Source: an uncultured delta proteobacterium (GTDB lineage: Bacteria; Myxococcota_A; Polyangia; Polyangiales; Polyangiaceae). From it: DNA of 64,000 nucleotides. Position numbers and translations under genes: made by a program. Shown here in pieces: positions 2,531 to 40,354 of this stretch; within the stretch, counting starts at the first letter, position 1, and the number at the start of each line of letters is the position of its first letter. Location: contig CAVQUB010000012.1 in NCBI GenBank assembly GCA_963716725.1, positions 64,001 to 128,000 of the forward strand, given 5' to 3'. Under the pieces are notes generated by a model. It ran no database searches. It saw only the letters and a list, made by a program, of their open reading frames with translations, and was not told where the DNA came from.

Positions 2531-2569
2531 CGCCCTGGGTCGCGAAGCCCGCCCACCACGCCGGGCCTC
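2531..2569. repeat. 39-bp direct repeat, identical to 6629-6667
   Basis: CGCCCTGGGTCGCGAAGCCCGCCCACCACGCCGGGCCTC at both positions. Confidence 0.9.
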
Positions 2570-2600
2570 TCTTCCTGCCCCCACTCGCCTCGCTGCGCTC
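2570..2600. repeat. Junction motif, copy 1
   Basis: TCTTCCTGCCCCCACTCGCCTCGCTGCGCTC; aligns with 3604-3635 with about 4 differences. Confidence 0.7.
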
Positions 2601-2852
2601 GGCGGTCTCCCCCAACGCCGGTGCGCGCGGGCGGTGGCGCTTTGCTCAGACCGGAGCGCGGGTGGCGCATGCCCCCGCGCACGCGGCGGGGGGAGACGCG
2701 CGTTTGGGCGTGTCGGTGGCCGTGCTGGGGGGAGCGGAGTCGACGGTGTTGCCGGCGCGCACACTCCCGTGTCGTGACTCGATACCACCGCGGCCCTTTC
2801 CCTGGCGTTTGGGTGACCTACCGAATGGCTCAACGCATGCAAGTGGCGCTGC

Positions 2853-3380
2853 ATGTCCTTGTCTCGGGTCGGAACCGTCCGCGCCGCGGTGGTCCTCGCC
2901 ATGTCTCCGGTGGCGGCGCTGCTCGCTTGCGACGTGGGAGACCTGGACTTCCAGTTGTTCAGCGGCGCTGACGGGGGCTCGGGTGAGTCCGGGTGGTTCA
3001 AAGGGGAGTGCAAGACCGACCAGCACTGCGAGGCGGGGCAGTGCTGTGTGCACTTTCTCGGCGGGTCGTGCGAAGACTTGGTTTGGACCAGTTCGACGCA
3101 GCCCATCTGTTTCAACTCTGGGGACGATCACGACGGGCTTTGCGCCTGTTTCCCGCCCCAGGCCCAGCCGATGTGCCCACCGGCGATACTCGAGCCCCCG
3201 GTGAAGCCCGAGTGCGCGCCCCGCCCTTACGTGAAGTGCGCGATGCTCTGCCCCGAGCAGGTCTGCGCGTGTTCCACGCAAGAGCTGGATCTATCTGACG
3301 TTGGAGTCGAAGTGCCGAGCTGTCCCCCGTCGGACTGGTCGATTACGTGCCCAAGCGCAGACGGCGGAGTCGCCGATTGA
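2853..3380 (+). CDS. Cys-rich lipoprotein
   Basis: Signal peptide with lipobox LLAC, many Cys. Confidence 0.7.
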   Translation: MSLSRVGTVRAAVVLAMSPVAALLACDVGDLDFQLFSGADGGSGESGWFKGECKTDQHCEAGQCCVHFLGGSCEDLVWTSSTQPICFNSGDDHDGLCACFPPQAQPMCPPAILEPPVKPECAPRPYVKCAMLCPEQVCACSTQELDLSDVGVEVPSCPPSDWSITCPSADGGVAD

Positions 3381-3391
3381 CGAGGCGCTTC

Positions 3392-3603
3392 GCGCGAGCC
3401 CGCCACCCTCACCGCACCCGAACCCAAGTCCCCGGTCCCCGATCGTCGCCGCTGCGCACGCTGTGCCACGCATCGGGCACCTGGGGCTCCGTCCACGAAA
3501 ACAGCCACTTCGCGTCGCGGACCGAGAGGTTGACGCAGCCGCCGCTCTTCGGCTCACCGAAGCGATCGTGCCAGTAGGCCGCATGCAAGGCGAAGGGCAT
3601 GTG
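3392..3603 (-). repeat. 212-bp exact duplicate of the L,D-transpeptidase 3' end (6929-7140)
   Basis: Base-by-base identity; encodes [11 protein letters not shown]...TWVRVR* plus 17 bp downstream. Confidence 0.95.
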
Positions 3604-3635
3604 TCTTCCTGCCCCAACTCGCCGCCGCTGCACTC
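3604..3635. repeat. Junction motif, copy 2
   Basis: TCTTCCTGCCCCAACTCGCCGCCGCTGCACTC; 3608-3628 identical to 38216-38236. Confidence 0.8.
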
Positions 3636-3711
3636 CTTCGAGTATCGCGAAGCGCGTCGCGGCGTCGGTCTTCCCCAAACTCGGGCTTTGCCCGAGCGGG
3701 GAAGACGGGCG

Positions 3712-3930
3712 TGGGTTCCGAGGTACTTCGGCGTCCTTTCGAGGCACTCGTCGCGCCGCCGACTCGTCGTGCCTGCTCCCCCGCCCGACGCGACCGCGCA
3801 CAAGCCCCCGCCCGCCCGCGGCGATCAGCTTGAGCTGCTCGGCGAGACAGACGACGCACCCGCTCCGCGAGCCCCTTGGGGATCCCCGAAGGGGGACAAA
3901 CGACGGGCCTGGCTCCTGGCGCATGTGTTG
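3712..3930 (+). mobile_element. IS91-family (rolling-circle) transposase C-terminal fragment
   Basis: [18 protein letters not shown]...RRAWLLAHV resembles the IS91 RY.GV and W..LL..V motifs. Confidence 0.6.
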
Positions 3931-4184
3931 ACCACGCGAAGGTGCGCCTGCCCGAGCAGTTGGTGCTGGGGTTCGGGAAGGAGTGAGGCAGGCGCCAAGC
4001 GCCTCGCCGAGCGCGAACGTGTGTCCTCTGCAGCGCGCGACGCCGAAAATCCTGCCGCGCTCTACCTTTGCGGGGCCCCGAGCGGGTTCACGGGCCAGCC
4101 CTCGACCGCGCGCATGCCTGCGCGTACTGTTCGACTCGGTGGGTTTTGGCAGTTCGTTTTCCCTACGCGCCCGTCGTCCTGAGC

Positions 4185-4736
4185 ATGAGCGTGTTCTTGT
4201 CATGCTCAGGACTCGTCGCGCAGGACTTGATAGGTGCGGATGCCGCCCCGGAACCCGATGCTGGCGACGGGGCGGCTGCTGCTGACGGAGTAGTGGACTC
4301 TGGTGACGGATTAGATGCTGCTGACGGGGTGGCAAACGCAGATGGAGTCGCAGGTGCCGACAGCAGCTGGTCCGACGCCACCGCGGCGACTGACGCGCCT
4401 CAAGGGTGTGACGGGGATGAGCATGAAACGTCTTTGGGGTGCGTTTCGTGCGAGGCTGCGTTGGAGCTCGTGGCATCGACGATCGGGTCCTTGGTGCTGA
4501 ACGCGAAAACCTGCGACAAAGCGATTGACTGCGCACTAGCAGCCGTATCTGTCGTCCCGTGCTACAAACGTTGCGCAGAGCCTGTCTCTGCGAAGCACGT
4601 AGATACGCTGTCAGGCCAACTCAAGGAAGTCGCGAAGGGCGATCTCTGTTTCTGCGCAGACAAGCCTCCGGACTGCATTGACGCATCCCTGCAAAAAGTC
4701 GGTTGTCTTGGCGGGCTCTGCCAATTCCTTCCTTGA
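4185..4736 (+). CDS. Cys-rich secreted or lipoprotein-like protein with atypical codon usage
   Basis: DA/DG-rich linker, Cys-rich C-terminus, many A/T-ending codons; start uncertain. Confidence 0.6.
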
Positions 4737-5181
4737 TCGTCGTCCGCGAGAGAGCGTGGCTGTTCGACCATCTACGGTCACGGCGCCCACACCCCGAACG
4801 GGCACGTGGATGCATACCACGCGAACACGAGACCCAAAGCCCACCACGCGATGGACCGGGCCATCGGCCACCGCGAAAGCAGCCATGCGAGGGCGACGAC
4901 GAGATAAGCGTTTGCCGCTTGGTAGCGGGCAAACGAAATGAGTGAAGGGGAAAAAAACGGCAGCAACCAAAGTGCTAACCCAAGCCCCGCCAATGCGTAG
5001 AGGATTCCCGCGCGGCGGCGAACAAAGAAGAGGGGCAAAGTGACAACGGCAGCTAAAACGCTCCTGCGTGCGGTATCTCCTCCTTCCTACACACGGCGCC
5101 CAGCGCTGCACCGCCCTGGCGCAACTGCGAGGGTCGCGGGCACGGCCTGGAGCGACGCGCGGTGGGCGCTATCACCGGCGC

Positions 5182-6345
5182 ATGCGGGGACGATGGCGTG
5201 GGTTGAAAGGGCTGTGGCTCGCGTGCGCGCTGGGCGCCTGCTCGTCGGAAGAGACTTCCCCAAGCGGCGCGAGGTGTACACCCGGGCAGTCGGCGCAGTG
5301 CGCCTGCGCCAACGGGCAGACCGGCGCCCAGATCTGCCAGGGCGACGGCACGTTCGCGGGCTGTGTCTGCGGCGGGAGCGGTGGTGGCGCGGGGCACGCG
5401 AGCGGAGGAACGGGAGGCCAGTCGACCGGGGGCGGGGCGGGCCAGTCGATCGGCGGGACGGGCGGTTCCGTGCCCGGCGAATCTCTTACCGGCGAGTGGA
5501 GCAAGGTGTTCCCGGGCGGCTTCGAGATCGCTGCGCTGGCGGTCGATGCTTCCGGGACGCTGGTCGTGGCTGGCGCGAGCTCGGCTCCGGTGGATTTCGA
5601 GAACGGTCCGGTTGGCAAGACGATGACCGGCTGGGCCAAACAACTGCTGATCGCTGGCTTCGACTCGAGCGGCCAGCGCAAGTTCGCCTTCGCCAAGGAT
5701 GCCGGGCGCATCGACGCGCAAACGTTGTCCATCCGACCCGTGGCCCAGGATCGGATCGTGGTTCAGGGCGAGACCACGGTGATCAGCCAGGGCTCGGGCC
5801 CGAGCGTGAAGTACACGCTCGTCTGGCCGTGCGGAACGGCACCTTCCAGCATCGGGAGCGGCGTACACTTCGTCGTCGAGCTCGACCAGGTGGGCAACTG
5901 CATCTGGGATCACACCTATCCGGCGGATGGCTACTCTCAGTTGCCGACCGCCGTGGTGTCTCCGAAGGACGGCTCGGTGTTCGTCACCGCCGTTGGGCAG
6001 TGGGGGACGCCGGTGACTCGGCGCTACCTCGCAAACGGCACTGAGCGCTGGCAGAAGGCGTTCGGGGGCAGCGCGCTCACCGCTCTGTCCACCGGCCATG
6101 TGCTGCTCGCGAGCTACAATCCGTTGACGCTACCTTCGGGAACGGTCGCCGGCCTGTTCGCGCTGGCTAGGCTGGACAGCACGGGCGGCGTCGTCGCTGG
6201 AAACGCCTGGGGCACCAGTGTCTACGACCCCACGCGCCAGCTCGTGGGCTTCGACATCGGCGGCAACGATCTCGTGGCGCTCGCTTTGCGCTACACCGGT
6301 ACCGTCGACTTGGGTGGCGGGCCTCGCACCTCTACCAATGCTGGC
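5182..6345 (+). pseudogene. Lipoprotein with Cys-rich module and beta-propeller (SBBP-like) repeats, 3'-truncated
   Basis: Lipobox LGAC, CTPGQSAQCAC module, Gly linker, WSKVF/WQKAFG repeats; coding character is lost after GTVDLGGGP. Confidence 0.7.
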
Positions 6346-6385
6346 GCCAGCCCGTCGAAGTCCCGAGCTCGGCCGCCGCGTACCC

Positions 6386-6493
6386 TTCGAGCCGGTGGGC
6401 GTCATGCGTCGGTACGAGCGCGGTGCGGACGGCGCCTACCACGACGGCATGCTGCTCGACCTCTTGCCCGAGGACTTGAACCGCGGGAAGTAG
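6386..6493 (+). pseudogene. GNAT (AAC(6')-like) acetyltransferase C-terminal fragment
   Basis: FEPVGVMRRYERGADGAYHDGMLLDLL*. Confidence 0.6.
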
Positions 6494-6547
6494 GGCAGTC
6501 GGGGAGAATTTGCTCGCCCCGCAGTGCGCGCTCTCTCCGCTTCAGCG

Positions 6548-6628
6548 CCCCCCGGGATGTCCGGGATGATGACGGTCTGGCCGTGCGACTCTTGGTCCGT
6601 CTTGCTGTGGGGGATCGTCAAGAGCAGC
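6548..6628 (-). mobile_element. Tyrosine recombinase internal fragment
   Basis: LLLTIPHSKTDQESHGQTVIIP resembles the catalytic-Lys SKTDQ motif of Cre-like integrases. Confidence 0.6.
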
Positions 6629-6677
6629 CGCCCTGGGTCGCGAAGCCCGCCCACCACGCCGGGCCTCGGAGGAACCC

Positions 6678-6936
6678 ATGCTTGCCCGTGACCGTCATCA
6701 GCTCCGCCGCCAGCAAACCCCCGCCGAACGCGCCGCCGAGATGCGCGCCGTGCCCACCCGCTCGGAGGCTGCCCTCTGGGCAATGCTCCGCGCTCGAAAA
6801 CTCGGCGCGTCGGTGCGGCGTCAGGTGGTGATCGGCCAGCACGTGGTCGACTTCTTGGTGCCCGCTCGCAAGCTCGTCGTCGAAGTCGACGGCGGGTGCC
6901 ACCGCGACCGCCGCGTGGCGGACGCCCGGCGCGAGC
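6678..6936 (+). pseudogene. DUF559 endonuclease, N-terminal part, interrupted
   Basis: GGAGG RBS; MR..PT.SEAALW..LR, RRQ..IG..VVDFL, LVVEVDGGCH, DARRE, then a break. Confidence 0.8.
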
Positions 6937-6945
6937 CCGCCACCC

Positions 6946-8664
6946 TCACCGCACCCGAACCCAAGTCCCCGGTCCCCGATCGTCGCCGCTGCGCACGCTG
7001 TGCCACGCATCGGGCACCTGGGGCTCCGTCCACGAAAACAGCCACTTCGCGTCGCGGACCGAGAGGTTGACGCAGCCGCCGCTCTTCGGCTCACCGAAGC
7101 GATCGTGCCAGTAGGCCGCATGCAAGGCGAAGGGCATGTGGAAAAACTGCGTGAAGGGGACCTCCGAGAGGTAGTAGCTCTTGCGCTCGGGGTCGGGCGT
7201 CATGGTCGTCGATCGGTGCTTCCACTCGATGCGGAAGGTGCCCGTCGGCGTGGTGAACTTCGCGGGCGCGCCGTTGTCGCGTTTGTAGCCGTTGGCGCCC
7301 GGCGAGATCAGCGTGGCGAAGATCGCGCGATCGCCCTCGTAGGCGACCAACGTGCCCCTGAAGATGCTGATGTCCACCCACTTCTCGCCGGCGGCTAGCG
7401 AGAAGCCTCGGGGCGGACGCTCGTCGATCATCGTGGCGTCGCGCTCGCGGATGAAGCCGCCGTCGGTCGTCTCCAGGTAGCGGACGTTGCGCTCCTTGCG
7501 GTAGCGGCCCGTCAGGCCCATCCAGGACAATCGCGTCCAGCTGCCCGGCGTCTCGCGCATCGCACCCGGCGTGGTGTCCTCACGAAAGCCGGCCAGCGGA
7601 TCGGGGTCGTCCGCGCGTGGTTCGTGAACATCGAGCTCCTCCTCGAAGCTCACCGGGGTCAGATCCGAGGCCGTTGCGATCACGCGGTACTTGGGCTTGT
7701 CGTCGTGCCTCACGAAGGCGAGGGGCAAGCGCACGCGCTCGCCGTCGATCTGCACTCCCACGAAGGGCGAGGGCTCGAGGGGGGCGAGTTTGTCCTTGGG
7801 GGCGACCAGCAGATCGTCGGTCAGGACCCAGCTGCGGCCGTCGACCACGAACTCGTCGGTCCACGCGATGGCCGAGCGAGCGGGGATCCACTTGGCGAAG
7901 GGGCGCGTCTCGTGAGGTGCGCTGGCCAGCGATGCAGGGGAGAGGGCACCGGTGGCGAATACGTTCGGGGGCGCGCCGGTGGCAGCGGCGAGATCGACGT
8001 CCTTCAGCGCCGCGGGAACGCGGACCGGATCGCGACCCTCGCGCTGCGCGGTGCGGAGCTCTTCGAGGCGGGCGAGGTGAGCGTCGAGCTCGAACTCGAC
8101 CCGGCGTTGCTCGTCGGCGGTCGGGATCTTCCGATAGAGCAGCCCCTCGCGCGAGGTGCTCCAGCCCAGGGGCGCCGCGGCATCGAAGTCGCCGTGGTGG
8201 CTGCGCTTGGCGACGATGATCGGGTGCGAGTCCACGTCGAGCGTGGTACTCGGATCGAGACAGACGTAGCCCGCCGGCTCGACCGCGTACCAGCCCTTGC
8301 TGCAGCCATCGGTCCCCTTCGAAGCAGCGTCGCGCAGGGGCACGACCGCGCCGATGTGAAGCTGGCCGATCTCAGGCGAGGTTTGGCGGGGGCTCTGCCG
8401 AACGAAGACGCGGGACGACAGCGCGCCGATGCGCGGCGGTGGCGGCGTTGGCGCGACCTGAGCGGCGGGCGCGACCTGAGCGGCGGGCGCGACCTGAGCG
8501 GCGGGTGCCGGACCGTCGGCGGCGAGTGTCGTGGTGGCTGCGGCGGTGGGCTCGGACTCGGTCGTTGTCGACGCCGCGGGTGACGGAGTGACGGATGACG
8601 GCCGACAGGCCGCGAGCACGAGCGCGAGCGCGGTGCCCAGGACCAGCCGACGTTCCAGAGACAT
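6946..8664 (-). CDS. L,D-transpeptidase (YkuD family) lipoprotein
   Basis: Lipobox [34 protein letters not shown]; 18-bp tandem repeat x3 (AAQVAP). Confidence 0.9.
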   Translation of the reverse strand: MSLERRLVLGTALALVLAACRPSSVTPSPAASTTTESEPTAAATTTLAADGPAPAAQVAPAAQVAPAAQVAPTPPPPRIGALSSRVFVRQSPRQTSPEIGQLHIGAVVPLRDAASKGTDGCSKGWYAVEPAGYVCLDPSTTLDVDSHPIIVAKRSHHGDFDAAAPLGWSTSREGLLYRKIPTADEQRRVEFELDAHLARLEELRTAQREGRDPVRVPAALKDVDLAAATGAPPNVFATGALSPASLASAPHETRPFAKWIPARSAIAWTDEFVVDGRSWVLTDDLLVAPKDKLAPLEPSPFVGVQIDGERVRLPLAFVRHDDKPKYRVIATASDLTPVSFEEELDVHEPRADDPDPLAGFREDTTPGAMRETPGSWTRLSWMGLTGRYRKERNVRYLETTDGGFIRERDATMIDERPPRGFSLAAGEKWVDISIFRGTLVAYEGDRAIFATLISPGANGYKRDNGAPAKFTTPTGTFRIEWKHRSTTMTPDPERKSYYLSEVPFTQFFHMPFALHAAYWHDRFGEPKSGGCVNLSVRDAKWLFSWTEPQVPDAWHSVRSGDDRGPGTWVRVR

Positions 8665-8769
8665 GGCGCGAATATCGCGGAGGACCGCTGATCCGGCCCA
8701 GATCCTTGAGACCGAGCTCGATGGGCGGCTCGATCTCGCGCGAATCATCGTGGGGCGAGCAACGGGCGC

Positions 8770-10947
8770 TCAGAACGGCTTGCCCGGTTTGACCGGAGGC
8801 CGGGGTGCCATCTCGGGACGCGGCGGCGGGGGGCGCGGGGCCATCTCGGGACGCGGCGGCGGCGGACGCGGCGCAGTGTGGGTCGGCGGGGGAGGCGGGG
8901 GAGCCGTGGCGTCGCGGGGCGAGGCCGCGTTGGCGACCTCGGTGCGCGTGAAGCCGATCTGGAAGCGCTGCCCGCGCACGTTTGCATCGAAGGTCAGCTT
9001 CCGGGTCGCGTCCACGATGGCGCGCTCTCGATCGGGGTCGAGCCGAGGGTGCAGCACGGTGACCTTCGATACGCTGCCATCGGTCGCGATCCAGAGCTCG
9101 AGGTCGACGCTGTCGGCGGGCACCACGTTTCGTGCGAGCAGGGGCAGCAGCTCTTCGTCGAGGATGGGCTTGATCAACGCGGCCGGACCCTGGGGCGGTG
9201 GCGTGTCGCGGGGCGCTGGCGTCGGCGTCGGCGTCGGCGCTGCATCCGGCACGTTCCGTGGCGGGCCGGAGGCGGTGGCCGTCGGGATCGCCACCATCTC
9301 GGTGGGGTGGCTCTTCTCCTTGCAGCCTGCCGCGCCGAGCGTGACCGTGGCGACGAGCCCAGCGCTGGCTGCCACCTGCATGAAGCCGCTGGATTTCTGC
9401 CGCCTGGTGGGCCGCAGCGGGACCGTGCGGATCTCGTCCAGGAGCTCCTTGACCTTGCGCCCGAGCCGCTCGTTGTCCGCGATCACCCGCCCTCGCAGCT
9501 CGGCGGTGAAAGCGTCCCGATCGGCCGGGCCGGTCAGGCGCGCGATGCCAGCGATGAGCGCCTCGAGGTGGTCGCAGGTGTTGACGTTCACCTCGACGAT
9601 CTGTTGTTTCACCTTGCGTCGGATCGCGTCGTTTGGCTCGAAGAATCTGGCGAGCAGCTGCTGCTCGTAGTCGATCTGCATCGCCAGGTGGTGCAGCCCC
9701 TCGTCACCGTAGTTTCGTGCCTCGAAGGCGGGATACATGATCTCGAAGGCGGTCTGGGCCCGCGCGTCGGTGATCTGGTAGTCGTATCCCCAATAGTCGC
9801 CGATCAGACGATTGTCGCGGCGCAGTCGCTTCTCGAGGGGCGTGCCCGCGTAGATCTCGGTGCGACAGAAGTTCATGGCTTGGTCGGGGTGGGCCCGCAG
9901 GAACGCCACGTTTCCGGCGAGGTCTTCCAGGGTCGAGTCCGGGTTGAGCACCAAGAGGTTGAAGCAGGTATGGATCTCCAGGCCGCCCAGGATCTCGAGC
10001 GCGCGCAGGTTGTCCTCGACGGTCTGACCGCGCCCGAGGCGCCGCAGCGACTCCGCCGTGCCCGCTTCGAGGCCGAGAAAGACGCGGAACATGCCCATCT
10101 CGCGCAAGAGCTCGAAGACCTCGGCGTCCACCACGTCCGGCCGACACTTGATCGCGAAGGCGATGGGTGTCGTCACGTTACGCGCGGCCAGCGCCGATCG
10201 GAGCGCGTGCATGCGTTCGAGCATCGCGACCTTGTCGTCGAGCACGAAGTTGTCGTCGTGGAAGTTGAAGATGCGCACCCCCTGGCCGTAGAGCAGCGCC
10301 ATCTCGTCGGCGAGGTGCTCCGGTGCGCGCAGGCGCAGGCGATCGCCGCCGCAGAGCCGATGCCAGGCGGCGATGGAGCAGAAGGAGCAGTTGCGCGTGC
10401 AGCCCCGGGACGACAGGATGTTGGTGATGGGGATCCCGAGGTAGTCGTCGAAGGGATGCTTGCGGGGCGGGAAGGGCAGCACGTCGAGATCGGGGGGCTT
10501 GATCGCGTCCGCGTTCTTCACCAGACCATCTCCCTGGCGCCAGACCAGGCCCGCGACGCTCGACGGATCGGGCAGCACGTGGACCAGATCGCACAAGATG
10601 GGCTCACCTTCGCCGCAGGCCACCGAGTCGAAGGCGCGCACGTCGTTCAAGAGCTGATCGGGGTGCATGGCGGCGAAGTGGCCACCGGCGATCAGATGGC
10701 CGGGGAAGCCCAGCTCCCTCACTCGCACCGCGAGCCGAGCGAACTCCCTCGCGCGGTAGGTGAAGACCATCGAGAAGCCCACCAGCGGCGCGCCCGAGGC
10801 GACGATCTGTCGCGCGGCCTCCTCCACTTCGTCGGCGCCGTTGAAGACGACGGTCGTGACTCGGTGTCCCGCGTGTTCGAGCGCTCCTCTCAGGTAGCGC
10901 ACTGCCAGGTTCTCCTCGAACTCCGCACCGACCAGGACGACGTGCAT
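8770..10947 (-). CDS. B12-binding radical SAM enzyme with C-terminal lipoprotein/TonB-C-like extension
   Basis: N-terminal B12-binding domain (LIAGGHFA, GEGE), SRGCTRNCSFC, FHDDNF, GLEAG; internal hydrophobic segment ending AAGC. Confidence 0.9.
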   Translation of the reverse strand: MHVVLVGAEFEENLAVRYLRGALEHAGHRVTTVVFNGADEVEEAARQIVASGAPLVGFSMVFTYRAREFARLAVRVRELGFPGHLIAGGHFAAMHPDQLLNDVRAFDSVACGEGEPILCDLVHVLPDPSSVAGLVWRQGDGLVKNADAIKPPDLDVLPFPPRKHPFDDYLGIPITNILSSRGCTRNCSFCSIAAWHRLCGGDRLRLRAPEHLADEMALLYGQGVRIFNFHDDNFVLDDKVAMLERMHALRSALAARNVTTPIAFAIKCRPDVVDAEVFELLREMGMFRVFLGLEAGTAESLRRLGRGQTVEDNLRALEILGGLEIHTCFNLLVLNPDSTLEDLAGNVAFLRAHPDQAMNFCRTEIYAGTPLEKRLRRDNRLIGDYWGYDYQITDARAQTAFEIMYPAFEARNYGDEGLHHLAMQIDYEQQLLARFFEPNDAIRRKVKQQIVEVNVNTCDHLEALIAGIARLTGPADRDAFTAELRGRVIADNERLGRKVKELLDEIRTVPLRPTRRQKSSGFMQVAASAGLVATVTLGAAGCKEKSHPTEMVAIPTATASGPPRNVPDAAPTPTPTPAPRDTPPPQGPAALIKPILDEELLPLLARNVVPADSVDLELWIATDGSVSKVTVLHPRLDPDRERAIVDATRKLTFDANVRGQRFQIGFTRTEVANAASPRDATAPPPPPPTHTAPRPPPPRPEMAPRPPPPRPEMAPRPPVKPGKPF

Positions 10948-11032
10948 GCGACCACCTCCCTCTTGGGTGGCGGCAGTCTGCGCCATGCGAGGGGCCGCCG
11001 ACACCCGCGCGGCGATGAACTATGCTGCGGGG

Positions 11033-11377: not shown

Positions 11378-11493
11378 CCCTGTGCCACCGCGCGAGCTGG
11401 CACAGTCCGCGGCGCGAGGGTCGCGTCAGGTCCCGTGAGAGCGCTGGTTGGGCGAGGGTTCCGCGTGGCACGCCGCGTGCAGCCGCGCGGGAC

Positions 11494-12954: not shown

Positions 12955-12961
12955 TCGGCTG

Positions 12962-15419: not shown

Positions 15420-15426
15420 CGACGGC

Positions 15427-31480: not shown

Positions 31481-31503
31481 GATATTTTCTCCAATTCGCC
31501 CGC

Positions 31504-31884
31504 TCACGGCGGGCACCTGCCAGATTGTTCCCGGCAACTTCCGGGTGCACAGCGGCCGCGATGGAAGTCCCACTCGCGGCAACGCGAACCGTCAGCAAAG
31601 ACGCAGACCCCAACCTCCCCCGCCGGCTCGTTGACGATCTCGAGCTTGCCTCCGTTCTTCTTACAATGAACTGAGGCGGGATTCGCCAAGCCAGAGTTTT
31701 GCGGCTCAGGCGTCGACGCCGGCGGCGCGGCGGAGAGATCAGCGGGCACCGTCGTCGATTCCGACGTCGGCGCGTCCGACGTGGTCGCCGACGAAGCTGG
31801 CGAGGGCGTAGCCGCGTTCGGCGTGCAGGAGAGCACGCTGCACAGGACGCACCAGGGCGCGAAGCTCAATCTCTCCCAACGCAT
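31504..31884 (-). CDS. DUF333 lipoprotein
   Basis: LANPASVHCKKNGG...CVFADGSRCREW. Confidence 0.85.
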   Translation of the reverse strand: MRWERLSFAPWCVLCSVLSCTPNAATPSPASSATTSDAPTSESTTVPADLSAAPPASTPEPQNSGLANPASVHCKKNGGKLEIVNEPAGEVGVCVFADGSRCREWDFHRGRCAPGSCREQSGRCPP

Positions 31885-32233
31885 GCGCGCGCCTATGCAA
31901 GCTACATTCCAGCCGGGTTAGCCCGAGTTTCTGAGACCAACCGGCCCGCTGCAGCGAAGAATTCGCGGGAAGAGCCCAGCGCGCGGCAAGCCTTGCAGAT
32001 CGCGTGCGACCCTCCGGTGCAATTGTGAATCGCCTTGGTGAGACGCTCGACGAAGCCTCGCTCTACCGCTACCCGCGCTCGGCCCGGTGCTCGATCTCCG
32101 CACCCTGCGTGCTGCGTGCGCGCGCCGCTCGCGCGTTGCTCACGCCCGCGCCGGCGGCCGCCCGGCAAACTTTTGGCTCGCCGTGTTGCTGACCAGCAAG
32201 CTCGCGGTCCGCTGGAACGCCTAGGTGTTCTCG

Positions 32234-33310: not shown

Positions 33311-33811
33311 GGCGAGCGAACATACATCGCCGGCACATGCGATGGGTACTCACACGCGCTCGGCGAAGCGCGACCGCACTCTCGTTCAGCGCGTCCAGGG
33401 GAACCGCGGTCCCATGCGGGCAGATCCACTCCTGGCTGCGGGTTTCTTCCCTCTTCCGCCGCGGCGATGATGTAGCCCAGCACGCAGAGCCCGCAGCGGC
33501 GCTCGAGCAGGGGCCCCCTCACGACGTTCGGGTCGAGCTCGGTGAGCCGCGACCCCAGCGTCGCCTCGGTCGGCTTCGCCCACTCATCGTCGATCTGTTC
33601 CTTGCGGAATGCCCGGACGTAGCCGTTGAAGATGCCGACATCGGGAAACTCGTTGGTGGGCGCTGCCGGCGCAAACCAGCACTGGCAACGCGCGCCCGTC
33701 AGCCGCGTAGTAGATGGCAGCCGCGGACCAAGATGGCAGCCGCTCGAGCGCATCCGGGGCGCCACGGTCCTGATGGTGCCGCTCCGTCGAGCAGCGCGCC
33801 GGCGCTCGCGC

Positions 33812-34360
33812 TCAGCAGCTCGTTGTACACTCGATGCGCGAGAGCTTGGCGCTGCCGGCTCCGTAGATGCAGCCCCACAGATCACCGTTCGCGTCGCAGC
33901 AGTATTGGCCGACCCCCCCACCCCCGAACACGGGCAGACTTTTGCAGTCCGATGAGCCAGCGACCAAGCCATCCGGGCACGCACGCACGGTGCCGCCGGG
34001 ATCTGCGCCTTGGAAGCCGCACTGGTAGAGATCCTGAGAAGCGTCCCAGCCGCATTGCGTCACGGGCGCGCATGAGCCGCCCGCCCCCGCGGCGCCTGCG
34101 GCCCCGCCAGTGCCACCGGTGGCCCCGCCTGCGCCACCGGTGGCCCCGCCTGCGCCGCCGGTGGTTCCGCCGACCGCGCCCGTGCCGCCAGCGGAGCCTG
34201 CTGTGCCGCCCGCGCCGCCCGCGCCGCCCGCGCCGCCCGCGCCGCTACCGCCCGATCCGCCGCTACCACGAGGCACTGATTCGTCCTCATCCTCGCTGCA
34301 GCCGACCAGGCTGAGCCCGACCAAGAAACACGTCGCCACCCCCAAACGCTTGAGATTCAT
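33812..34360 (-). CDS. Gly-rich, Cys-rich lipoprotein
   Basis: Lipobox LVGC; GGAGG repeats. Confidence 0.75.
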   Translation of the reverse strand: MNLKRLGVATCFLVGLSLVGCSEDEDESVPRGSGGSGGSGAGGAGGAGGAGGTAGSAGGTGAVGGTTGGAGGATGGAGGATGGTGGAAGAAGAGGSCAPVTQCGWDASQDLYQCGFQGADPGGTVRACPDGLVAGSSDCKSLPVFGGGGVGQYCCDANGDLWGCIYGAGSAKLSRIECTTSC

Positions 34361-34612
34361 CGCGCTAGCGTGCCAGCGCCAGGGCCGGAGCGACAGCGGC
34401 GGTTTCGGGGGTTTATGGGGGATGTGGGGCCGAGCTGGGTCGGGTGGCGCGGGACCGCTAGCTGAACATGCAACTCGCGCATCACGCCGCCGACAGCCAC
34501 CCACAACCTGTTCAACTCGCTTGCCGCTGCCCTTGCTGATGGCGGCGCTCGCGGCAGGGGGAAGTGGCGCCTCGTGTCCAGGGGCGTTCGTCTCAGGACG
34601 CAAGCAAAAATT

Positions 34613-35074
34613 TCAAGCCGCACGGGCGCGCAGGTACGCGACGCTGCCCGGCAGGTCGCGGATCAGCCGCAGCAGGATGTCCATCGCCGCCGTCTGAACG
34701 TTGCGCCCGGACTCCCAGCGGGAAACCGTGTTCGCGCCGAGGCGCAGGAGTCGCGCCAGGTCGCTTTGCTTGAGCTCGAACTGCGCCCGAATGGCGCGGA
34801 TCTCGTCGGCCGAGAGCAGCCCGTGCTTCTTCCGGTAGATTCCGATCGCGTCCTCGTGGAGCCGCTTGGCCTCCCGGAACCGCAGCACGATCTCTCCGCA
34901 CTTCGGGCACTTCAGGTGCGACGCCGACGGCACCGCGATCTCCTCTCCGTTGATCGGCAGCTTCAGCCGCCCGCGTGCTTCCCTCATCATCGTTCCGCAG
35001 GCCGGGCAAGCGTCGGCGGGAAGCTCGCGACCACGACGCGCTGCTTGGCGTGGCTTGCTACCCTTCTTCGTCAT
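34613..35074 (-). CDS. mqsA: MqsA-family antitoxin
   Basis: CPAC/CPKC zinc finger plus Xre HTH (NTVSRWESG). Confidence 0.88.
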   Translation of the reverse strand: MTKKGSKPRQAARRGRELPADACPACGTMMREARGRLKLPINGEEIAVPSASHLKCPKCGEIVLRFREAKRLHEDAIGIYRKKHGLLSADEIRAIRAQFELKQSDLARLLRLGANTVSRWESGRNVQTAAMDILLRLIRDLPGSVAYLRARAA

Positions 35075-35372
35075 CGACAGCCTCGTCCTCGTGGAACGAC
35101 ACGATCACGCAGTCTTCTCGGAGCACGATCTTGACGTAGATGATCCGTCCCTCGACGGCGGGCTTGAAGACGTACATCCACTCGCCCGTCACCTCGGACG
35201 CAAGGCGACCGGCCGAGTCGGTCGGGCTCAGGCCCTCGACCACCTGGCGCACGTCTTCCACTGCGAGGCCCAGGGCGACCGCCTCTCGGTCGGCCTTGTA
35301 CGTCAGACGCACGCACCCCTGGGACCCGAGCGCGTGGATGCGCATCAAGTCCCTGGGTAGCCAGCGCGGCAT
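35058..35372 (-). CDS. MqsR-like toxin
   Basis: Upstream of and overlapping mqsA; W.YVFKP, IYVKI, IVSFH. Confidence 0.75.
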   Translation of the reverse strand: MPRWLPRDLMRIHALGSQGCVRLTYKADREAVALGLAVEDVRQVVEGLSPTDSAGRLASEVTGEWMYVFKPAVEGRIIYVKIVLREDCVIVSFHEDEAVDDEEG

Positions 35373-35848
35373 GTCGAAGGTCCATAACCTTGTGAGAGAT
35401 TATGCATATGGTTATTCGAAGCGTCGAGCGCTGGATTGGGCAGCGCGAGGCGCGGCACGGCAAGCGAGAGAGAGCGAAGGTCGTGCCCAGCTCGAAGCTG
35501 ACGAGATTCGTGAGTTTTCAAGTGCCCGCGGGGGCGGCGATCGCCACTCTTCGCCAGGTGATCGCCACCCGCGGGCCCCTCGGGAGCGCCCGGTCCCCAC
35601 CGACGTCTCGACGCGCCACAAGCGCCAGGCGGTTCGGTGAGCCGCTGAGGTCGCCATCGCCGCACAGACCCGCAAGAGGTGCTCGGGCGCCTCTTCGTCC
35701 GGCAAGGGGAGGCAGCGACAATCGCGGGCTCAGCCTTCCCTCATCATCGTGCCGCAGAACACCTGGACCCAGCTCGCCGATGGCACGAACCAGACGCAGA
35801 CCAGCCGTGCCGGTCGTGGGTCTCTGTCCTCGAGTCGGGAGTGGCTGA

Positions 35849-35929
35849 TCACGCCCGCGCCGGTGGCCGCAGGCTCGCCCGCGGCCCGATCAACACATAC
35901 GTCTTCATCTCGCCCTTGCCCTTCACCTC
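35849..35929 (-). repeat. 81-bp exact duplicate of the adenylate cyclase 3' end (39053-39133)
   Basis: Identical sequence, followed by motif-like TTGTCCTGCCTCCCCC. Confidence 0.93.
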
Positions 35930-36325
35930 TTGTCCTGCCTCCCCCGGTCGTTGCTCGCCGCGCTATCGCGCGGCTGCGCGCCGCCTGCCCCCTCCTTATC
36001 CGGCAAGCGCCAGCGGCGGTCGAGTTGTGACAGCGTTGCGGGCTCGAGGGCGCTTGCACGCACGGAATGACCTCCGCCGACGCTTGCTCGGATGGAGGGG
36101 GCGCGTCGTGCCGAGACTGGCTGCAGGCCGAGTTGCGGTGGGGTCGCGCACCAGTCGGCGTCGCTGGGTGCGCAGGCACTCGAGGGCGGCTGCGGCTGCT
36201 CACTCCCGGGTCCGCGTCTGCCGCGCGGCGCAGCGTGGGCTCTGCCCGGGCTCGGGGTGGCGATCCGGCGCACTTGCGGTCCACCCCAGGGCGATGAGCT
36301 TGCGTTTGTGGTATTTTCTGGAGGG

Positions 36326-36590
36326 ATGCGTTCTACAACGCCAGCGGCTCCGGTCATCAAGAACGTCCTGCTGAGCGGCGCGCTCGACGGCGACCTCGCG
36401 ACCGTGAAGCTCACGGTCGACGTGACCGATCCCGATGGGTTGTCCGACATCGCCGGCGGGAAGCTCTTCTCGAAGGACAAGTCGAAGTTCCTGGGCGCAT
36501 TCACCCAGCTCAGCGGAGGGACGTTCACGACGGACTTGACCTGGAAGACCGTGAACGAAGTCGAAACGCTTGGGCTTCAAGTGCCACTGT
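36326..36590 (+). pseudogene. Fragment of an Ig-like secreted protein
   Basis: APVIK...VDVTDPDGLSDIAGG...GTFTTDLTW with coding-like codon use; ends abruptly. Confidence 0.5.
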
Positions 36591-36808
36591 GCCTGTCAGA
36601 AGGCTACGCAGGTCGCGCCGCAACTGGCGCAGCTCACTTCCACCTGCTGCTCTCGGCTCGCCGTGTTCGACGCAGCGTCCGTGAACTCGATGAGCTCGAA
36701 TCGCGTGGTGGTCGCGCCTTCCGTGAGGAGGATGCAGTGAACGGCTGCGCAGACCCATGCGGGCCCACGGGTTGCGCTTGCGACTGCGGGTGACCAGCGA
36801 GGTCGAAC

Positions 36809-38005
36809 ATGCCAACTCCATCCAGTCGGAACGGTCGGATCTGGGTCGTCTTGGTGGCGCTGGTGGGGGCGGGGTGCGGGGCTGAGCAAATCGACGGCAC
36901 GGGCGCCGCGGGCGGAGGCGGCGTCACGCACTCCGGCGGCAACGGTGGGACCGCTGGGGTGGGCGGAGTTGCGCCTGACGCAGGGGGTGGCGGTGGCTGC
37001 GTGAGGCAGATCGGCGCAAGTTGGGAATTCACGTGCGCGGTGAGGACCGACGACAGCGCTTGGTGCTGGGGAGATGCGGGCTACGCGTTCTTGGACGACT
37101 TCGTCCAAAGCGCCCACCCGGTTCGGCTGACCTCCTTCGGGACGGAGGTGGTCCAGATCGCGGCGGGCTGGCATCACGCGTGCGCGCTCACCAAGGCGGG
37201 AGCCGTCTCCTGCTGGGGCTCCAACGACGCCGGACAACTCGGTAGCGATGGGGTCTCGACGACCGCGATCGGCTCGGACGTAGTGTCCGTCGCATCCCGC
37301 CACAAGCACACCTGCGTGGTGAGAGTCGATGGCAGCGTGTGGTGCTGGGGCAGCAACTACTCCGGGCAAATCGGCGACGGAACGACGGTCGACCAGCCGC
37401 TGCCGAAGCGAGTCAATTCCGTCGGTGCGGGCGTCACCCAAGTAACCGTAGGCGACGGCCACAGCTGCGCGGCCACCAGCGACGGGACAGTTTGGTGTTG
37501 GGGCTTCAACCACAACGGCCAACTCGGCGACGGAACGACCGAGGCCAAGACGACCCCGACGCCGGTGTTCAAGCTCGCAACGCCGCCGAGGGAGCTCACT
37601 GCTGGATTCGATTTCACGTGTGCGCTGGAGCAGAACGGCAGCCTGTGGTGCTGGGGCGCAGGCCAATTGGAGCCTTCGAAAGTCGAGGGGATCGGAGCGA
37701 AGGTGGCGCAGATCGGGTCAGGGCGGCTCCACATTTGCGCGGTGACGGAGGCAGGCGCGCTGTGGTGCTGGGGCAAAAACTTCAGCGGCCAGTTGGGCAC
37801 AGGCACGACCGACGACCAGGTCGCGCCGGTGCTGATCCTCGGCTCGGGCGTGGTCCGCGTGGCCGGGGGTCGTCATCACACCTGCGCGATCGTGGCGGAC
37901 GGCACTCCCCTGTGCTGGGGCCAGAACTCGGCCAGCCAGCTCGGCGACGGAACGACCTTGGGGATGCAGACGAGCCCGGTGCCGGTCGTCGGCCTGTGTC
38001 CCTGA
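36809..38005 (+). CDS. RCC1-repeat lipoprotein
   Basis: Lipobox GAGC; seven (H)TCA...G.VWCWG(.N..GQLG) repeats. Confidence 0.92.
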   Translation: MPTPSSRNGRIWVVLVALVGAGCGAEQIDGTGAAGGGGVTHSGGNGGTAGVGGVAPDAGGGGGCVRQIGASWEFTCAVRTDDSAWCWGDAGYAFLDDFVQSAHPVRLTSFGTEVVQIAAGWHHACALTKAGAVSCWGSNDAGQLGSDGVSTTAIGSDVVSVASRHKHTCVVRVDGSVWCWGSNYSGQIGDGTTVDQPLPKRVNSVGAGVTQVTVGDGHSCAATSDGTVWCWGFNHNGQLGDGTTEAKTTPTPVFKLATPPRELTAGFDFTCALEQNGSLWCWGAGQLEPSKVEGIGAKVAQIGSGRLHICAVTEAGALWCWGKNFSGQLGTGTTDDQVAPVLILGSGVVRVAGGRHHTCAIVADGTPLCWGQNSASQLGDGTTLGMQTSPVPVVGLCP

Positions 38006-38213
38006 TCACGCCCGCGCCGGCGGCCGCAGGCTCGCCCGCGGACCGATCAAGCCATGCGTCTTCATCTCGCCTTTGCCCTTCACCTCGATCGTGCCGCGGG
38101 GCTCGAAGTGAAACTGCGTGCGCAGGCGTTCGTAGGTGCGTTCGGTGACCTGGATGGTGTCGGGCTCGGCGTGGGTTTCCATGCGGGCGGCGGTGTTCAC
38201 GGTGTCGCCCCAC
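38006..38213 (-). repeat. 208-bp diverged duplicate of the adenylate cyclase 3' end (39053-39260)
   Basis: About 12 substitutions by manual alignment, mostly synonymous. Confidence 0.93.
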
Positions 38214-38236
38214 TGCCTGCCCCAACTCGCCGCCGC
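38214..38236. repeat. Junction motif copy
   Basis: 38216-38236 CCTGCCCCAACTCGCCGCCGC is identical to 3608-3628. Confidence 0.85.
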
Positions 38237-38290
38237 CGCGTGGTCGCGTGACGCGGGTTGCTGCACGCGAACGCGAGATTGGAGACTAGC

Positions 38291-38866
38291 TCATTCCGCC
38301 GGTGGTGCGAACAGGCGACCTACCTCGAGTTCAATGGCTTCGAAGGGTTCGATGCGCGCGAGGGCCGTGTGATCATAGCTTCCGACCTCGCCCCAACGCC
38401 CCGCGTCGAGGCGATACGCCTCGAGCACGCGCTCCACCGGATCGACGATCCAGTAGTACTGCACGCCGGCGCGTGCGTAGAGGCTCTTCTTCTTCACGCG
38501 GTCGTGCGTGGCATTGCTGGGCGAGACGATCTCGCAGATCCAATCCGGCACGACCGTGAGCGGGCGCGTGTCCCAGGGTTTCGGAAGGCGCTCGCGGCGC
38601 CAACCGGAAAGATCCGGCCGCACCACGTCGTGGGGGCCGAGTTCGACGTCCACCTCGAGCAGAATCCACCAGCCACCCGGACCCCCACGGCCGTCGTCGT
38701 CGTCGAACGGTCCGCCAACGAAGCGCGACAGGGAGCGTTGGGCTCTTGCATGCCGCGGGAGCGGAGCCGGCGAAACAGTGATCTCACCGTCGAGGATCTC
38801 CGCCCGCACGTTCTCTGCGAGAGCGAGGAGGTCTTGGTAGCTGGCTGGGCGGCGCGCCGGCTGCAC
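38291..38866 (-). CDS. Uma2-family endonuclease
   Basis: EILDG, RPDLSGW, PDWICEIVSPS, DR..K..LYA..GV..YWIVDP. Confidence 0.92.
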   Translation of the reverse strand: MQPARRPASYQDLLALAENVRAEILDGEITVSPAPLPRHARAQRSLSRFVGGPFDDDDGRGGPGGWWILLEVDVELGPHDVVRPDLSGWRRERLPKPWDTRPLTVVPDWICEIVSPSNATHDRVKKKSLYARAGVQYYWIVDPVERVLEAYRLDAGRWGEVGSYDHTALARIEPFEAIELEVGRLFAPPAE

Positions 38867-39052
38867 GCATGCGAGTATAGCGCAAAGTCACGACGGGGCC
38901 GGGCCCCGACACGACGCATGTCGCGCAAACCGCCCCGTTCGCGCTCTCCTGGGAGCCGGTCGATGGCGAGATCTTCGTGACCGTGGACTGAGCGACGCTC
39001 CAGCCGCGCCCAAGGCTCCGGTTCATCGGGGTAACCGAGCTTCGCGAGCCGC

Positions 39053-40354
39053 TCACGCCCGCGCCGGTGGCCGCAGGCTCGCCCGCGGCCCGATCAACAC
39101 ATACGTCTTCATCTCGCCCTTGCCCTTCACCTCGATGGTGCCGCGGGGCTCGAAGTGGAACTGCGTGCGCAGGCGTTCGTAGGTGCGCTCGGTGACCTGG
39201 ATGGTGTCCGGCTCGGCGTGGGCTTCCATGCGCGCGGCGGTGTTCACGGTGTCGCCCCACAGATCGTAGGAGAATTTCTTGGTGCCGATGACGCCGGCGA
39301 CGACCGGGCCGCTGTTGATGCCGATCCGGACGCGGATGGGCTCGCCGGTGGGAGTCTGGAAACGCGACGCCACTTCGCGGAGCTCGAGGGCCATGTTGGC
39401 GACGGCCACCGCGTGGTCCTTGCGCGGCGTGGGAACGCCGGCGACCGCCATGTAGGCGTCGCCGATGGTCTTGATCTTCTCGAGCCCGTACTTCTCGGTG
39501 AGCGCGTCGAGTCTGGAGAATATCTCGTTCAGCATCGCGACCAGCTTGGTCGGCGCCATCTTGGCGCTGAGCGGCGTGAAGCCGACCAAGTCGACGAACA
39601 GTACCGTGGCCTCGAGGAAACCTTCGGCGATGGCGGCTTGATCGCGCTTGAGCCGCTCGACGATGGACGCGGGTAGGATGTTGAGCAGCAGTTGCTCCGC
39701 CGCCTCGCGCTCTTGGGAGAGCTCCCAGCGCGCTCGGTGCTCGCGGCGCCGAAGCTGATCAGCGAGATGCGTGCCGACGCAGGTGATGACCGCTGCCGTC
39801 GTGACCAGAAACAGCCCTTCCACCAGCCAGCCCGCGTCTGCTCGGCTGACCCGGGCGAGCCCCGCGGCCAGGTACATCGCGAGCACGATGCCGAGCACGG
39901 CCAGGATTTGCTTCAAGGTGTAGGGGAACGCCCAGCCGGTGAACACGATGAAGAGCACGAGCATGCCGACGTCGGAGCCGCCGGCCACGCCGTAGCGCAA
40001 CATCGGGAGCACCGTGTAGGCGGCGTTGCCGATGGTGAGCGCTACCGACAGGGAGAAGGCCCAACGCTCGAGGCTGGGCAGGTAGGTCAGGGCCGCGAAC
40101 CCGAGGGCGAAGGCCACCGCCACCGAGCGCTGGATGGCGGCGTCCTTGATCGGGCCCACGCCGAAGGCCGCGAGCACCGCCAGCGCCAGGAGGTGGAGGG
40201 CCGCGTAGACGCTGCCTCCGGTACGAAGGCGGCGGAAAATCAGCGCCCGGACGTCGTCGTGGAAGCCCTCGATCAGATCCCGGGAGGCCTCCGGCCGGAT
40301 CACCACCGAACGCACGGAGGCGGGGAACAGCTCGGAGACGGGTGACGGAGACAC
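39053..40354 (-). CDS. Membrane adenylate/guanylate cyclase (class III)
   Basis: About 6 TM helices; LLLNILP, FVDLVGFT, KIKTIGDAYM, YDLWGDTVNTAARME, VKGKG; start uncertain. Confidence 0.93.
   Translation of the reverse strand: MSPSPVSELFPASVRSVVIRPEASRDLIEGFHDDVRALIFRRLRTGGSVYAALHLLALAVLAAFGVGPIKDAAIQRSVAVAFALGFAALTYLPSLERWAFSLSVALTIGNAAYTVLPMLRYGVAGGSDVGMLVLFIVFTGWAFPYTLKQILAVLGIVLAMYLAAGLARVSRADAGWLVEGLFLVTTAAVITCVGTHLADQLRRREHRARWELSQEREAAEQLLLNILPASIVERLKRDQAAIAEGFLEATVLFVDLVGFTPLSAKMAPTKLVAMLNEIFSRLDALTEKYGLEKIKTIGDAYMAVAGVPTPRKDHAVAVANMALELREVASRFQTPTGEPIRVRIGINSGPVVAGVIGTKKFSYDLWGDTVNTAARMEAHAEPDTIQVTERTYERLRTQFHFEPRGTIEVKGKGEMKTYVLIGPRASLRPPARA

Follow-up and report, generated by a model that had tools for sequence, protein, structure and literature searches.

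DUF559 nuclease cassettes with a structured 5′ module at duplicated gene 3′ ends in a genus of Polyangiaceae

In fungal mitochondria, endonuclease-encoding mobile open reading frames (mORFs) reside in atp6, atp9, cox2, and nad3 of Glomus and in atp6 of Allomyces macrogynus, and the sections of the published account on which we draw give their order as gene core, inserted 3′ end, endonuclease gene, and displaced native 3′ end, with the host gene remaining functional (PMC3630166). The same sections ascribe mORF mobility to an endonuclease that cuts ORF-less alleles, followed by repair that copies the element in, and the model expects the inserted gene end to be foreign (PMC3630166). Free-standing Vsr-like (EDxHD) endonuclease genes located in 'fractured genes' carry 5′ untranslated region (UTR) hairpins at 15 of 16 loci in the part of that report used here (PMC2677866), and I-Bth0305I is described, again in a partial account, as a Vsr-like (EDxHD) homing endonuclease (PMC3239194). 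Here we describe bacterial cassettes that bear likenesses to both systems and that were recognized in a 64,000-nucleotide stretch of DNA (the window) from an uncultured member of the Polyangiaceae, wherein duplicated segments near an L,D-transpeptidase (LDT) gene and a class III adenylate/guanylate cyclase gene are followed by a shared sequence motif.

The motif proved to be the start of a structured module, M, of 110 to 130 nt, with which small selfish cassettes begin at their 5′ end; among the genomes sampled, these cassettes are confined to one genus. The commonest cassette consists of M, a leader of ~150 to 200 nt, and a gene for a DUF559 protein of ~137 amino acids that is predicted to be a Vsr-like PD-(D/E)XK nuclease. 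Like the mORFs, these cassettes exhibit the order of gene, surrogate end, nuclease, and displaced end, and the host gene is kept whole; a sequence-only reading of the window had proposed an undescribed system, a proposal with which this match in layout to the published mORFs, as far as the cited sections describe them (PMC3630166), does not agree. The cassettes also depart from mORFs in several respects. A DUF559/Vsr-like nuclease takes the place of a LAGLIDADG or GIY-YIG enzyme, and its gene runs antisense (convergent) to the host gene rather than in phase; the cassettes reside in bacterial chromosomes, carry a conserved structured 5′ module, and form multi-cassette arrays with non-nuclease cargo; and, instead of one copy being clearly foreign, the two gene-end copies of a genome are near-identical. 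Note that the source genome (G000; 7.9 Mb, 35 contigs, 84% completeness), which contains the window on its contig C12, was compared with sister genomes G001 to G006; C denotes a contig, L denotes a fetched locus, and coordinates are those of the window unless a contig is named.

All four of the duplicated segments noted by the sequence-only reading, each with a motif following on the plus strand, are present in the window, and the two motif copies at 3608–3628 and 38216–38236 are identical at 21 of 21 positions. The motif was also confirmed to be more frequent than chance predicts, because CCTGCCCCMACTCGCC with up to two mismatches yields three matches in the window versus 0.31 expected, and none of 100 shuffles reaches three. 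The whole of G000 contains eight exact copies and 16 profile matches. Alignment of the copies revealed that the motif forms the first ~20 nt of M, which spans about 80 to 130 nt in this alignment and combines a composite hairpin and a small helix with the motif; three variants are present in the window (M1, 3604–3715; M2, 2570–2700; M3, 35930–36124). The hairpin was scored over 436 cells in 22 copies drawn from five genomes. Of these cells, 98.4% pair (shuffles, 90.2%) and 33 have a double change (shuffles, 8.9), and 0 of 500 shuffles reaches the observed value for either quantity; the count of pairs with a double change (6 versus 4.8) was not significant (119 of 500 shuffles). Controls in which the partner strand was slid pair at just 40 to 58%, and the pairs are exclusively Watson-Crick except for one plus-strand U-G pair. 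No Rfam family matched in the window at gathering scores. M is probably the 5′ UTR or a control hairpin of the nuclease gene. A pattern search for M across 61 genomes from a sampling of the family had matches in this genus alone, barring one hit that is probably due to chance, and BLAST yields about 10 to 45 matches per genome in five of the six sister genomes.

These counts also bear on the prospect that the motif is an ordinary repetitive extragenic palindrome (REP)-type repeat unlinked to the duplications, or that the duplications are assembly artifacts, both of which the sequence-only reading had named as findings that would refute it. The source assembly is indeed in 35 contigs at 84% completeness, and repeats attract misjoins. 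However, there are only 16 motif copies in 7.9 Mb and they have a regular DUF559 partner, and for five of the 16 M copies in G000 a second copy of the left flank, reaching as far as the junction, lies 0.6 to 6.1 kb away on the same contig. Moreover, the same layout is present in G001, G002 (5 contigs), G003, and G005, and an artifact is unlikely because the architecture thus recurs in four other genome assemblies. We therefore regard a plain repeat or a misassembly as having next to no probability. The public sequencing runs in which this population occurs come from biofilter, sediment, wastewater, and groundwater studies, with no RNA run among those listed. Contigs from four of these runs, in four studies, span most bins, and among the 32 records listed no contig bridges a duplication boundary with at least 31 letters on both sides or offers a clean empty allele; one contig from run X8 departs from the LDT fragment at the equivalent of position 7032 for M-like sequence, with a side of only 21 letters.

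The sequence-only reading had also called for the full-length element to which the motif belongs, and this is most often the M–leader–DUF559 cassette. In G002, a DUF559 gene lies within 0.9 kb downstream of at least 8 of 14 M1 matches, and across the sister genomes M1 regularly precedes such a gene by 230 to 900 nt; G000 contains nine matches to the DUF559 family. The cassette protein matches PF04480 (2e-23), and a profile of nine copies matches PDB entry 3HRL, a DUF559-type 'endonuclease-like protein' (5e-18), and more weakly I-Bth0305I (3R3P; E 0.013, over 40 residues). Residues D74, E85, D87, and H91 are invariant in all nine aligned copies and are, by analogy, presumably catalytic; both nuclease activity and specificity are predictions from these sequence features. 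The cassettes resemble the EDxHD homing genes in having a small nuclease of PD-(D/E)XK/Vsr fold in conserved genes, a 5′ hairpin, and the weak match to the 3R3P core. The EDxHD genes, so far as the partial accounts indicate, are associated with split-intein gene halves or group I introns, whereas no intein or intron is present here and gene integrity is provided by a duplicated 3′ end, and we liken the cassette DUF559 to the EDxHD family rather than assign it to that exact family.

When 16 units are aligned, each has its own left flank and the sequences become similar from (T)TCCTGCCCC onward; the units in G002 end in a stop codon followed by GACAAAGATTGC(TTC)n(GTGGCGT)n. A comparison of filled and empty sites was possible at locus L021, where the unit in G002, together with a back-to-back small ORF, fills the spacer between two conserved genes. 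This spacer is 19 to 95 nt in five of six relatives and holds a different 1.7-kb insert in G003, such that the comparison comprises one filled site (L021, G002) and five empty ones. The small ORF (L021 462–1003 of G002, minus strand) encodes, as judged by eye, a GxxExxY-type PD-(D/E)XK protein, and beyond it the same (GAA)n/(ACGCCAC)n tail recurs in the opposite orientation, forming an inverted repeat of 36 nt (97%). The two nuclease cassettes at L021 seem to share an end type.

At the LDT end of the window, the array of cassettes is arranged as follows.

2421 to 2569, plus strand: fragment of a DUF559-cassette leader, which the next module interrupts immediately ahead of the DUF559 ribosome-binding site.
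2570 to 2700, plus strand: M2 module, with a TCTTCCTGCCCCCACTCGCC motif and a long stem, GTCTCCCCC...GGGGGAGAC, around an insert of ~80 nt.
2853 to 3380, plus strand: cargo ORF for a Cys-rich protein of 175 amino acids, with a lipobox-like LLAC (by eye) and without a Pfam family.
3392 to 3603, minus strand: displaced LDT 3′ end, with the last 64 codons, the stop, and 17 nt (YkuD 100–140 of 146).
3604 to 3715, plus strand: M1 module, with the motif, the small helix, and a covarying 16-bp composite hairpin.
3721 to 4169, plus strand: remnant of an IS91-family insertion sequence (IS), matching tnpA amino acids 440–541 at 53% identity, with the conserved right end ...TTTGGCAGTTCGTTTTCCCTACGCG.
4185 to 6628, plus strand: further cargo, with two lipoprotein-like ORFs (4185–4736; 5182 to ~6300), judged by eye from the sequence and from third-position GC frames, and no Pfam family.
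~6350 to 6490, plus strand: GNAT-like C-terminal fragment (by eye) within the preceding cargo.
6629 to 6928, plus strand: DUF559 leader (6629–6677) and the first 83 DUF559 codons (6678–6928; PF04480, 62.4 bits).
6929 to 8748, minus strand: intact LDT gene with YkuD domain, 600 amino acids (coding sequence 6946–8748), whose last 212 nt (6929–7140) are the gene-proximal duplication copy.

The displaced and gene-proximal LDT ends (3392–3603 and 6929–7140) are 100% identical over 212 nt, and the host protein is full length (YkuD domain 2–140 of 146). The DUF559 gene is convergent with the LDT gene and is truncated on meeting the LDT 3′ UTR. The fourth duplication is of another kind: 2531–2569, the last 39 nt of the leader fragment, equals 6629–6667 at 100% identity, and the intact leader at 6629–6677 runs into the ATG at 6678. 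Consequently, the claim that the duplicated segments are gene 3′ ends is borne out for the LDT and cyclase copies, whereas 2531–2569 is the leader upstream of the DUF559 start codon. This leader repeat is dispersed, with further copies on C13, C34, C5, and C6. The Cys-rich ORF has a paralogue at C12 44598–45252 (95%), a third LDT fragment with its motif lies outside the window at C12 53874–54066 (91%), and one 2,500-nt contig from run X8 covers 4126–6625.

At the cyclase end, two displaced gene ends lie beyond the intact gene.

35849 to 35929, minus strand: distal displaced cyclase 3′ end, 81 nt, 100% identical to 39053–39133 and abutting the end of an RCC1-like remnant.
35930 to 36124, plus strand: M3 module, with a TTGTCCTGCCTCCCC motif and a long stem, GCCCCCTCC...GGAGGGGGC (stem by eye).
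36809 to 38005, plus strand: gene for an RCC1-repeat protein, either cargo or neighbor, stop-to-stop with the middle cyclase fragment.
38006 to 38213, minus strand: middle displaced cyclase 3′ end, 208 nt, 94% identical to 39053–39260, with the junction between YDL and WGDTVNTAARME.
38214 to 38236, plus strand: M1 remnant, the first 23 nt only, matching the motif.
38291 to 38866, minus strand: cargo, an intact gene for a Uma2-family PD-(D/E)XK nuclease of 191 amino acids (PF05685, 8.8e-30).
39053 to 40441, minus strand: intact class III adenylate/guanylate cyclase gene, 462 amino acids, whose last 208 nt are the gene-proximal copy.

The cyclase is likewise full length (Guanylate_cyc 7–182 of 183), so the assertion that both host genes stay intact was correct, as was the expectation that the cargo includes lipoprotein-like genes, toxin–antitoxin pairs, and nucleases. 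By contrast, the window was said to hold no intact catalytic gene, yet the Uma2 gene is intact and a truncated DUF559 gene (6678–6928) is also present. The distal cyclase copy extends at 78% identity into the end of the neighboring RCC1-like gene (35769–35929 versus 37936–38086). Relatives of M3 are located on C1, and the same variant abuts an LDT fragment in G002. A gene pair for an MqsA antitoxin and an MqsR toxin (34613–35372, minus strand) lies beside the cyclase array. In G006 the LDT and cyclase genes are adjacent (C9 52518–55254), as compared with 30 kb apart in G000.

This anatomy recurs at six host genes in five genomes, which extends the proposed accretion of cassettes at gene 3′ ends to other hosts. 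The duplicated segments span 39 to 610 bp and the displaced copy abuts M. LDT duplications measure 212 bp in G000 (100%), 610 bp in G002 (94.6%), 205 bp in G003 (95.6%), and 140 bp (94.3%) and 92 bp in G005, and the LDT array in G001 comprises five stacked units, each with an LDT fragment of 85 to 92 bp plus M. In addition, an M2 array on C12 of G003 has repeats of 212 to 235 bp. We fetched 13 other loci around M1/DUF559 units and sought a direct repeat with one copy ending no more than 5 nt from M and the other starting after the nuclease gene. Such gene-end duplications are present at four of the 13, at uppS (142 bp), purC (80 and 63 bp), and a MoxR-like ATPase gene (230 bp); three others are tandem units, four have none, and two have repeats that do not abut M. 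A scan of this genome and its relatives, which the sequence-only reading had suggested as a check, places motif hits beside duplicated segments at five units in G000 as well as in sister genomes.

The cassettes are oriented convergently to the conserved host gene and start 0 to 180 nt past its stop. The DUF559 gene is 3 nt from the stop of uppS, 10 and 88 nt from that of purC, and ~180 nt from that of the LDT gene in G003. DUF559 genes occur at the LDT gene in G000 (the truncated copy at 6678–6928), G003, and G001; at purC in G002 and G003, with fragments also in G001 and G000; at uppS in G002; at the MoxR-like ATPase gene in G001; and at an ArsA-like ATPase gene in G003 and G002. In G004, the cyclase stop is directly adjoined by the 3′ remnant of a DUF559 gene, which is fused to M3. 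The nuclease lies between the gene-attached and displaced 3′ ends at the LDT gene in G000 (plus later inserts), at uppS and purC in G002, and at purC in G003, and the purC (SAICAR_synt) and uppS (Prenyltransf) host domains are complete. The duplicated piece usually ends at, or no more than 32 nt past, the host stop, with the exception of the LDT gene in G002 (+414 nt). One end of the insertion is defined by the motif and the other boundary varies, as proposed.

The junctions fall in the YkuD catalytic region of the LDT, between YDL and WGDTVN in the cyclase, and between I and MWPDF in UppS, sites that we take to encode conserved motifs. Joining had been thought to occur at variable positions, but within the LDT gene the junctions recur across species, at position 7140 in four genomes and at 7032 in two. 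To the right of the junctions, a target consensus was considered because four of seven intact sites begin with GA and a fifth does so with an offset of 1 nt, but the sample is too small. Likewise, inspection by eye suggested that an internal ATG in the displaced fragment might use the reverse complement of M as its Shine-Dalgarno sequence, which fits the LDT, uppS, and one ATPase-gene fragment, but this idea was dropped because it fails for the cyclase junction and the LDT junction at 7032. The empty-site comparison at purC found downstream flanks that are not conserved between species, and uppS in G000 has a single gene-end copy with a downstream flank that is not comparable. Beside an M2 cassette in G000 there is an orphan 141-amino-acid ORF (L034 5387–5812; C1 141387–141812, minus strand) that has only the C-terminal domain of DNA gyrase B and that may be another displaced or surrogate gene end.

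By analogy with the fungal mORFs, we lean toward nuclease-driven homing with a surrogate gene end as the origin of these arrangements. The DUF559 nuclease would cut cassette-free alleles near the junction, and the break would be repaired from a cassette-bearing allele. When insertion occurs inside the 3′ coding region of the host, the gene-proximal side would carry a full copy of the 3′ end, and the displaced end would remain on the far side, abutting M. The host gene would stay whole because the gene-proximal side carries its full 3′ end. Repeated invasions at the same point would stack displaced ends into arrays, which later arrivals such as the IS91-family element, lipoprotein-like genes, and toxin–antitoxin pairs could then join. 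The layout of the mORFs and the existence of Vsr-like endonuclease genes with 5′ UTR hairpins are the reasons that we favor homing.

Several observations weigh against this interpretation. Many M2 and M3 modules precede cargo without a nuclease. The inserted end is not foreign as judged by the mORF criterion, since both copies are closest to the gene of their own genome: fragments match the gene of the same genome at 100 and 90% in G000, 100% in G002, and 96.9 and 99.5% in G003, and duplicate copies are 94 to 100% identical within a genome versus 75 to 87% between species. The functional LDT copy equals the displaced copy over 212 nt, which leaves any immunity to cutting unexplained. In the cyclase array, it is the oldest-looking (distal) fragment and not the middle one that is identical to the gene. 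A tree of DUF559 proteins revealed no lineages specific to a host gene, with none of 17 inner branches well supported, and the purC label requires 4 changes versus 4.5 in shuffles. Finally, G002 carries four DUF559 copies with identical protein sequence at different sites, and two of these loci, L021 and L023, lack a flanking duplication, a pattern more suggestive of transposition.

We therefore considered an autonomous transposon-like element, wherein DUF559 would nick the folded M hairpin or a site next to it and copying into new sites would proceed from the M end of the unit, while the other end would be resolved variably and would sometimes yield long target duplications. This is near the one-ended model of the sequence-only reading, with a Vsr-like nuclease instead of an HUH enzyme. 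Such an element would account for the four identical units in G002, for the defined ends (M on the left; in G002, the stop codon and GACAAAGATTGC(TTC)n(GTGGCGT)n on the right), for the covariation of the M hairpin, for intergenic insertion without a gene-end copy, and for the truncation of DUF559 at variable points on meeting host DNA (6928 in the window; also G004). However, the identical, youngest-looking copies at L021 and L023 are those without flanking duplication, and therefore duplication is not an obligate product. Furthermore, the host stop codon or a position just beyond it marks the end of the duplications, as would be expected from selection for a working gene more than from second nicks at random, and no transposase-like domain is present. 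We know of no Vsr-like enzyme that transposes DNA. It is possible, but in our estimation improbable, that the M hairpin and DUF559 constitute a self-sufficient new type of bacterial mobile element that nicks at a folded DNA end without a transposase or integrase and that, with surrogate gene ends, stacks cargo at housekeeping-gene 3′ ends in the manner of an integron, with toxin–antitoxin pairs, lipoproteins, and further nucleases among the cargo. If true, those 3′ ends would become the variable hotspots of the genome.

The resemblance of fragments to the gene of their own genome suggests concerted evolution, and it has a natural place in a scheme with no dedicated enzyme. Cassettes between repeats of gene fragment plus M would loop out and re-enter by Campbell-type homologous recombination, and would move likewise between strains. 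The boundaries are indeed direct repeats of 60 to 610 bp with 81 to 100% identity, and nuclease-less cassettes have the same boundaries. Nevertheless, this scheme leaves unexplained the origin of the first junctions, the regular presence of DUF559 beside host stops, and the location of junctions in conserved-motif coding sequence at six host genes, and we judge it somewhat less probable than the transposon-like element.

An IS91-family tnpA gene (Zn_Tnp_IS91, 3.4e-15; Y2_Tnp, 4.8e-8) resides at C12 54402–56111, 8 kb upstream of the window and directly after the third LDT fragment (91%) and its M1, and the IS remnant at 3721–4169 also follows M1. These placements are what rolling-circle transposition of the IS91/ISCR type would predict if the motif were terIS and if one-ended products re-entered by homology. 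In the model proposed for ISCR1, one-ended transposition accounts for the duplicated 3′ conserved segment (3′-CS) of complex class 1 integrons, and the present arrays are similar in that a host fragment, whose length varies, adjoins a fixed end of the element and has a second copy beyond the cargo. Additionally, the IS91 terIS has a subterminal palindrome and is skipped in 1 to 10% of events or more, according to the part of that study drawn on here (PMC13181058). Counting against the motif as terIS are full IS copies on C13 (two) and C8 that have a different upstream (left) region without M and the position of M upstream of DUF559 in most cases, with dozens of M copies in the genus that have no IS. 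The bases to the right of the junctions also mismatch the flanks of IS right ends. As for the conserved target tetranucleotide that borders oriIS in IS91/ISCR elements, 14 right ends stop at ...ACGCG followed by C and variable bases, with no GTTC or CTTG seen. The motif is not an end of the IS91-family element of this genome, most M1 copies in G002 sit upstream of DUF559, and the partner gene encodes a nuclease rather than a Y2 HUH transposase, so the HUH/rolling-circle chemistry that had been proposed is not upheld and one-ended IS91 transposition is largely refuted and very unlikely. Rather, because full IS copies lack M and M regularly precedes DUF559, the IS91-family element appears to be a later arrival in the leader of one cassette. 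The right flank of the IS does not resume the cassette leader.

The stacked, repeated gene ends also resemble att sites, and the M hairpin is conserved in structure and variable in sequence like attC, which could reflect island accretion through tandem integration by a tyrosine recombinase at an att site in a gene 3′ end or an integron-like attC system. However, none of the 19 Phage_integrase (PF00589) matches in G000 is on C12, the inserts of 0.8 to 3.3 kb have no integrase, the same M abuts unrelated host genes, and fragment lengths vary within one host, which together make a recombinase even harder to credit than the IS91 route. Integron cassette arrays and the orphan-tip arrays of Rhs and contact-dependent inhibition (CDI) systems offer a looser comparison. 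These share with the present arrays the stacking of small cassettes, toxin–antitoxin genes, ORFs without assigned function, structured boundary repeats, and displaced ends from successive replacements, but here there is no integrase or attI, and what is repeated is a genuine gene 3′ end, from a gene of housekeeping type, and not a toxin core.

Our searches of the literature on DUF559, alone or with homing and mobility terms, found no description of such bacterial cassettes, and a search on homing endonucleases with C-terminal duplication yielded papers on fungal mitochondria. DUF559 itself has almost no literature; the term occurs in just 25 papers of the literature searched, and in the title or abstract of none. 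New features here are the long, variable duplications, a covarying 5′ module that is common to nuclease-less cargo, and multi-cassette arrays that recur throughout a genus at the same gene ends. Homing with a surrogate end would provide a concrete, testable origin for the small variable islands that lie right after conserved genes in large GC-rich genomes, and it would carry the mitochondrial pairing of an endonuclease with a surrogate gene end over to bacterial chromosomes and to the DUF559 family. The cassettes also point to putative natural site-specific nucleases aimed at conserved coding motifs. For annotation, they serve as a warning that an orphan fragment of a gene 3′ end, or a hybrid gene end, can be the footprint of such a cassette.

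Other features were noted near the arrays. At the start of the window, an ORF at 91–1005 has an AAA_22 ATPase match and a short integrase-core (rve) match, with DUF6431 and Trans_reg_C ORFs just upstream (L001), and it is probably a transposon remnant. Positions 1009–2374, just upstream of the leader fragment, hold an NTP_transf_2/Polbeta nucleotidyltransferase and HEPN pair, an MNT-HEPN-type toxin–antitoxin module, and a B12-binding radical SAM gene (8770–11004, minus strand) lies directly upstream of the LDT gene.

Among the IS91-family elements, the right end ...TTTGGCAGTTCGWTYSCCTTACGCG is conserved in 14 copies, and at C13 110310–114223 and C8 414320–417061 a full copy is immediately followed by 5′-truncated copies (amino acids 232–564) in head-to-tail arrangement at a spacing of 1,180 bp. 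A separate 27-nt hairpin mini-repeat, with the core GACCCTKGGAAGTCCC, a 7-nt loop, and GGGAC, is present throughout G000, with 92 matches (up to one mismatch) versus one in the reversed-genome control. It occurs singly or head to tail with a period of 27 (for example at C4 157629–157845 and C5 605042–605204; also C12 54828). Four copies are apparently in frame inside IS91-like tnpA, where they produce DPWKS... inserts, and one copy lies inside M2 of the LDT arrays of G001 and G005.

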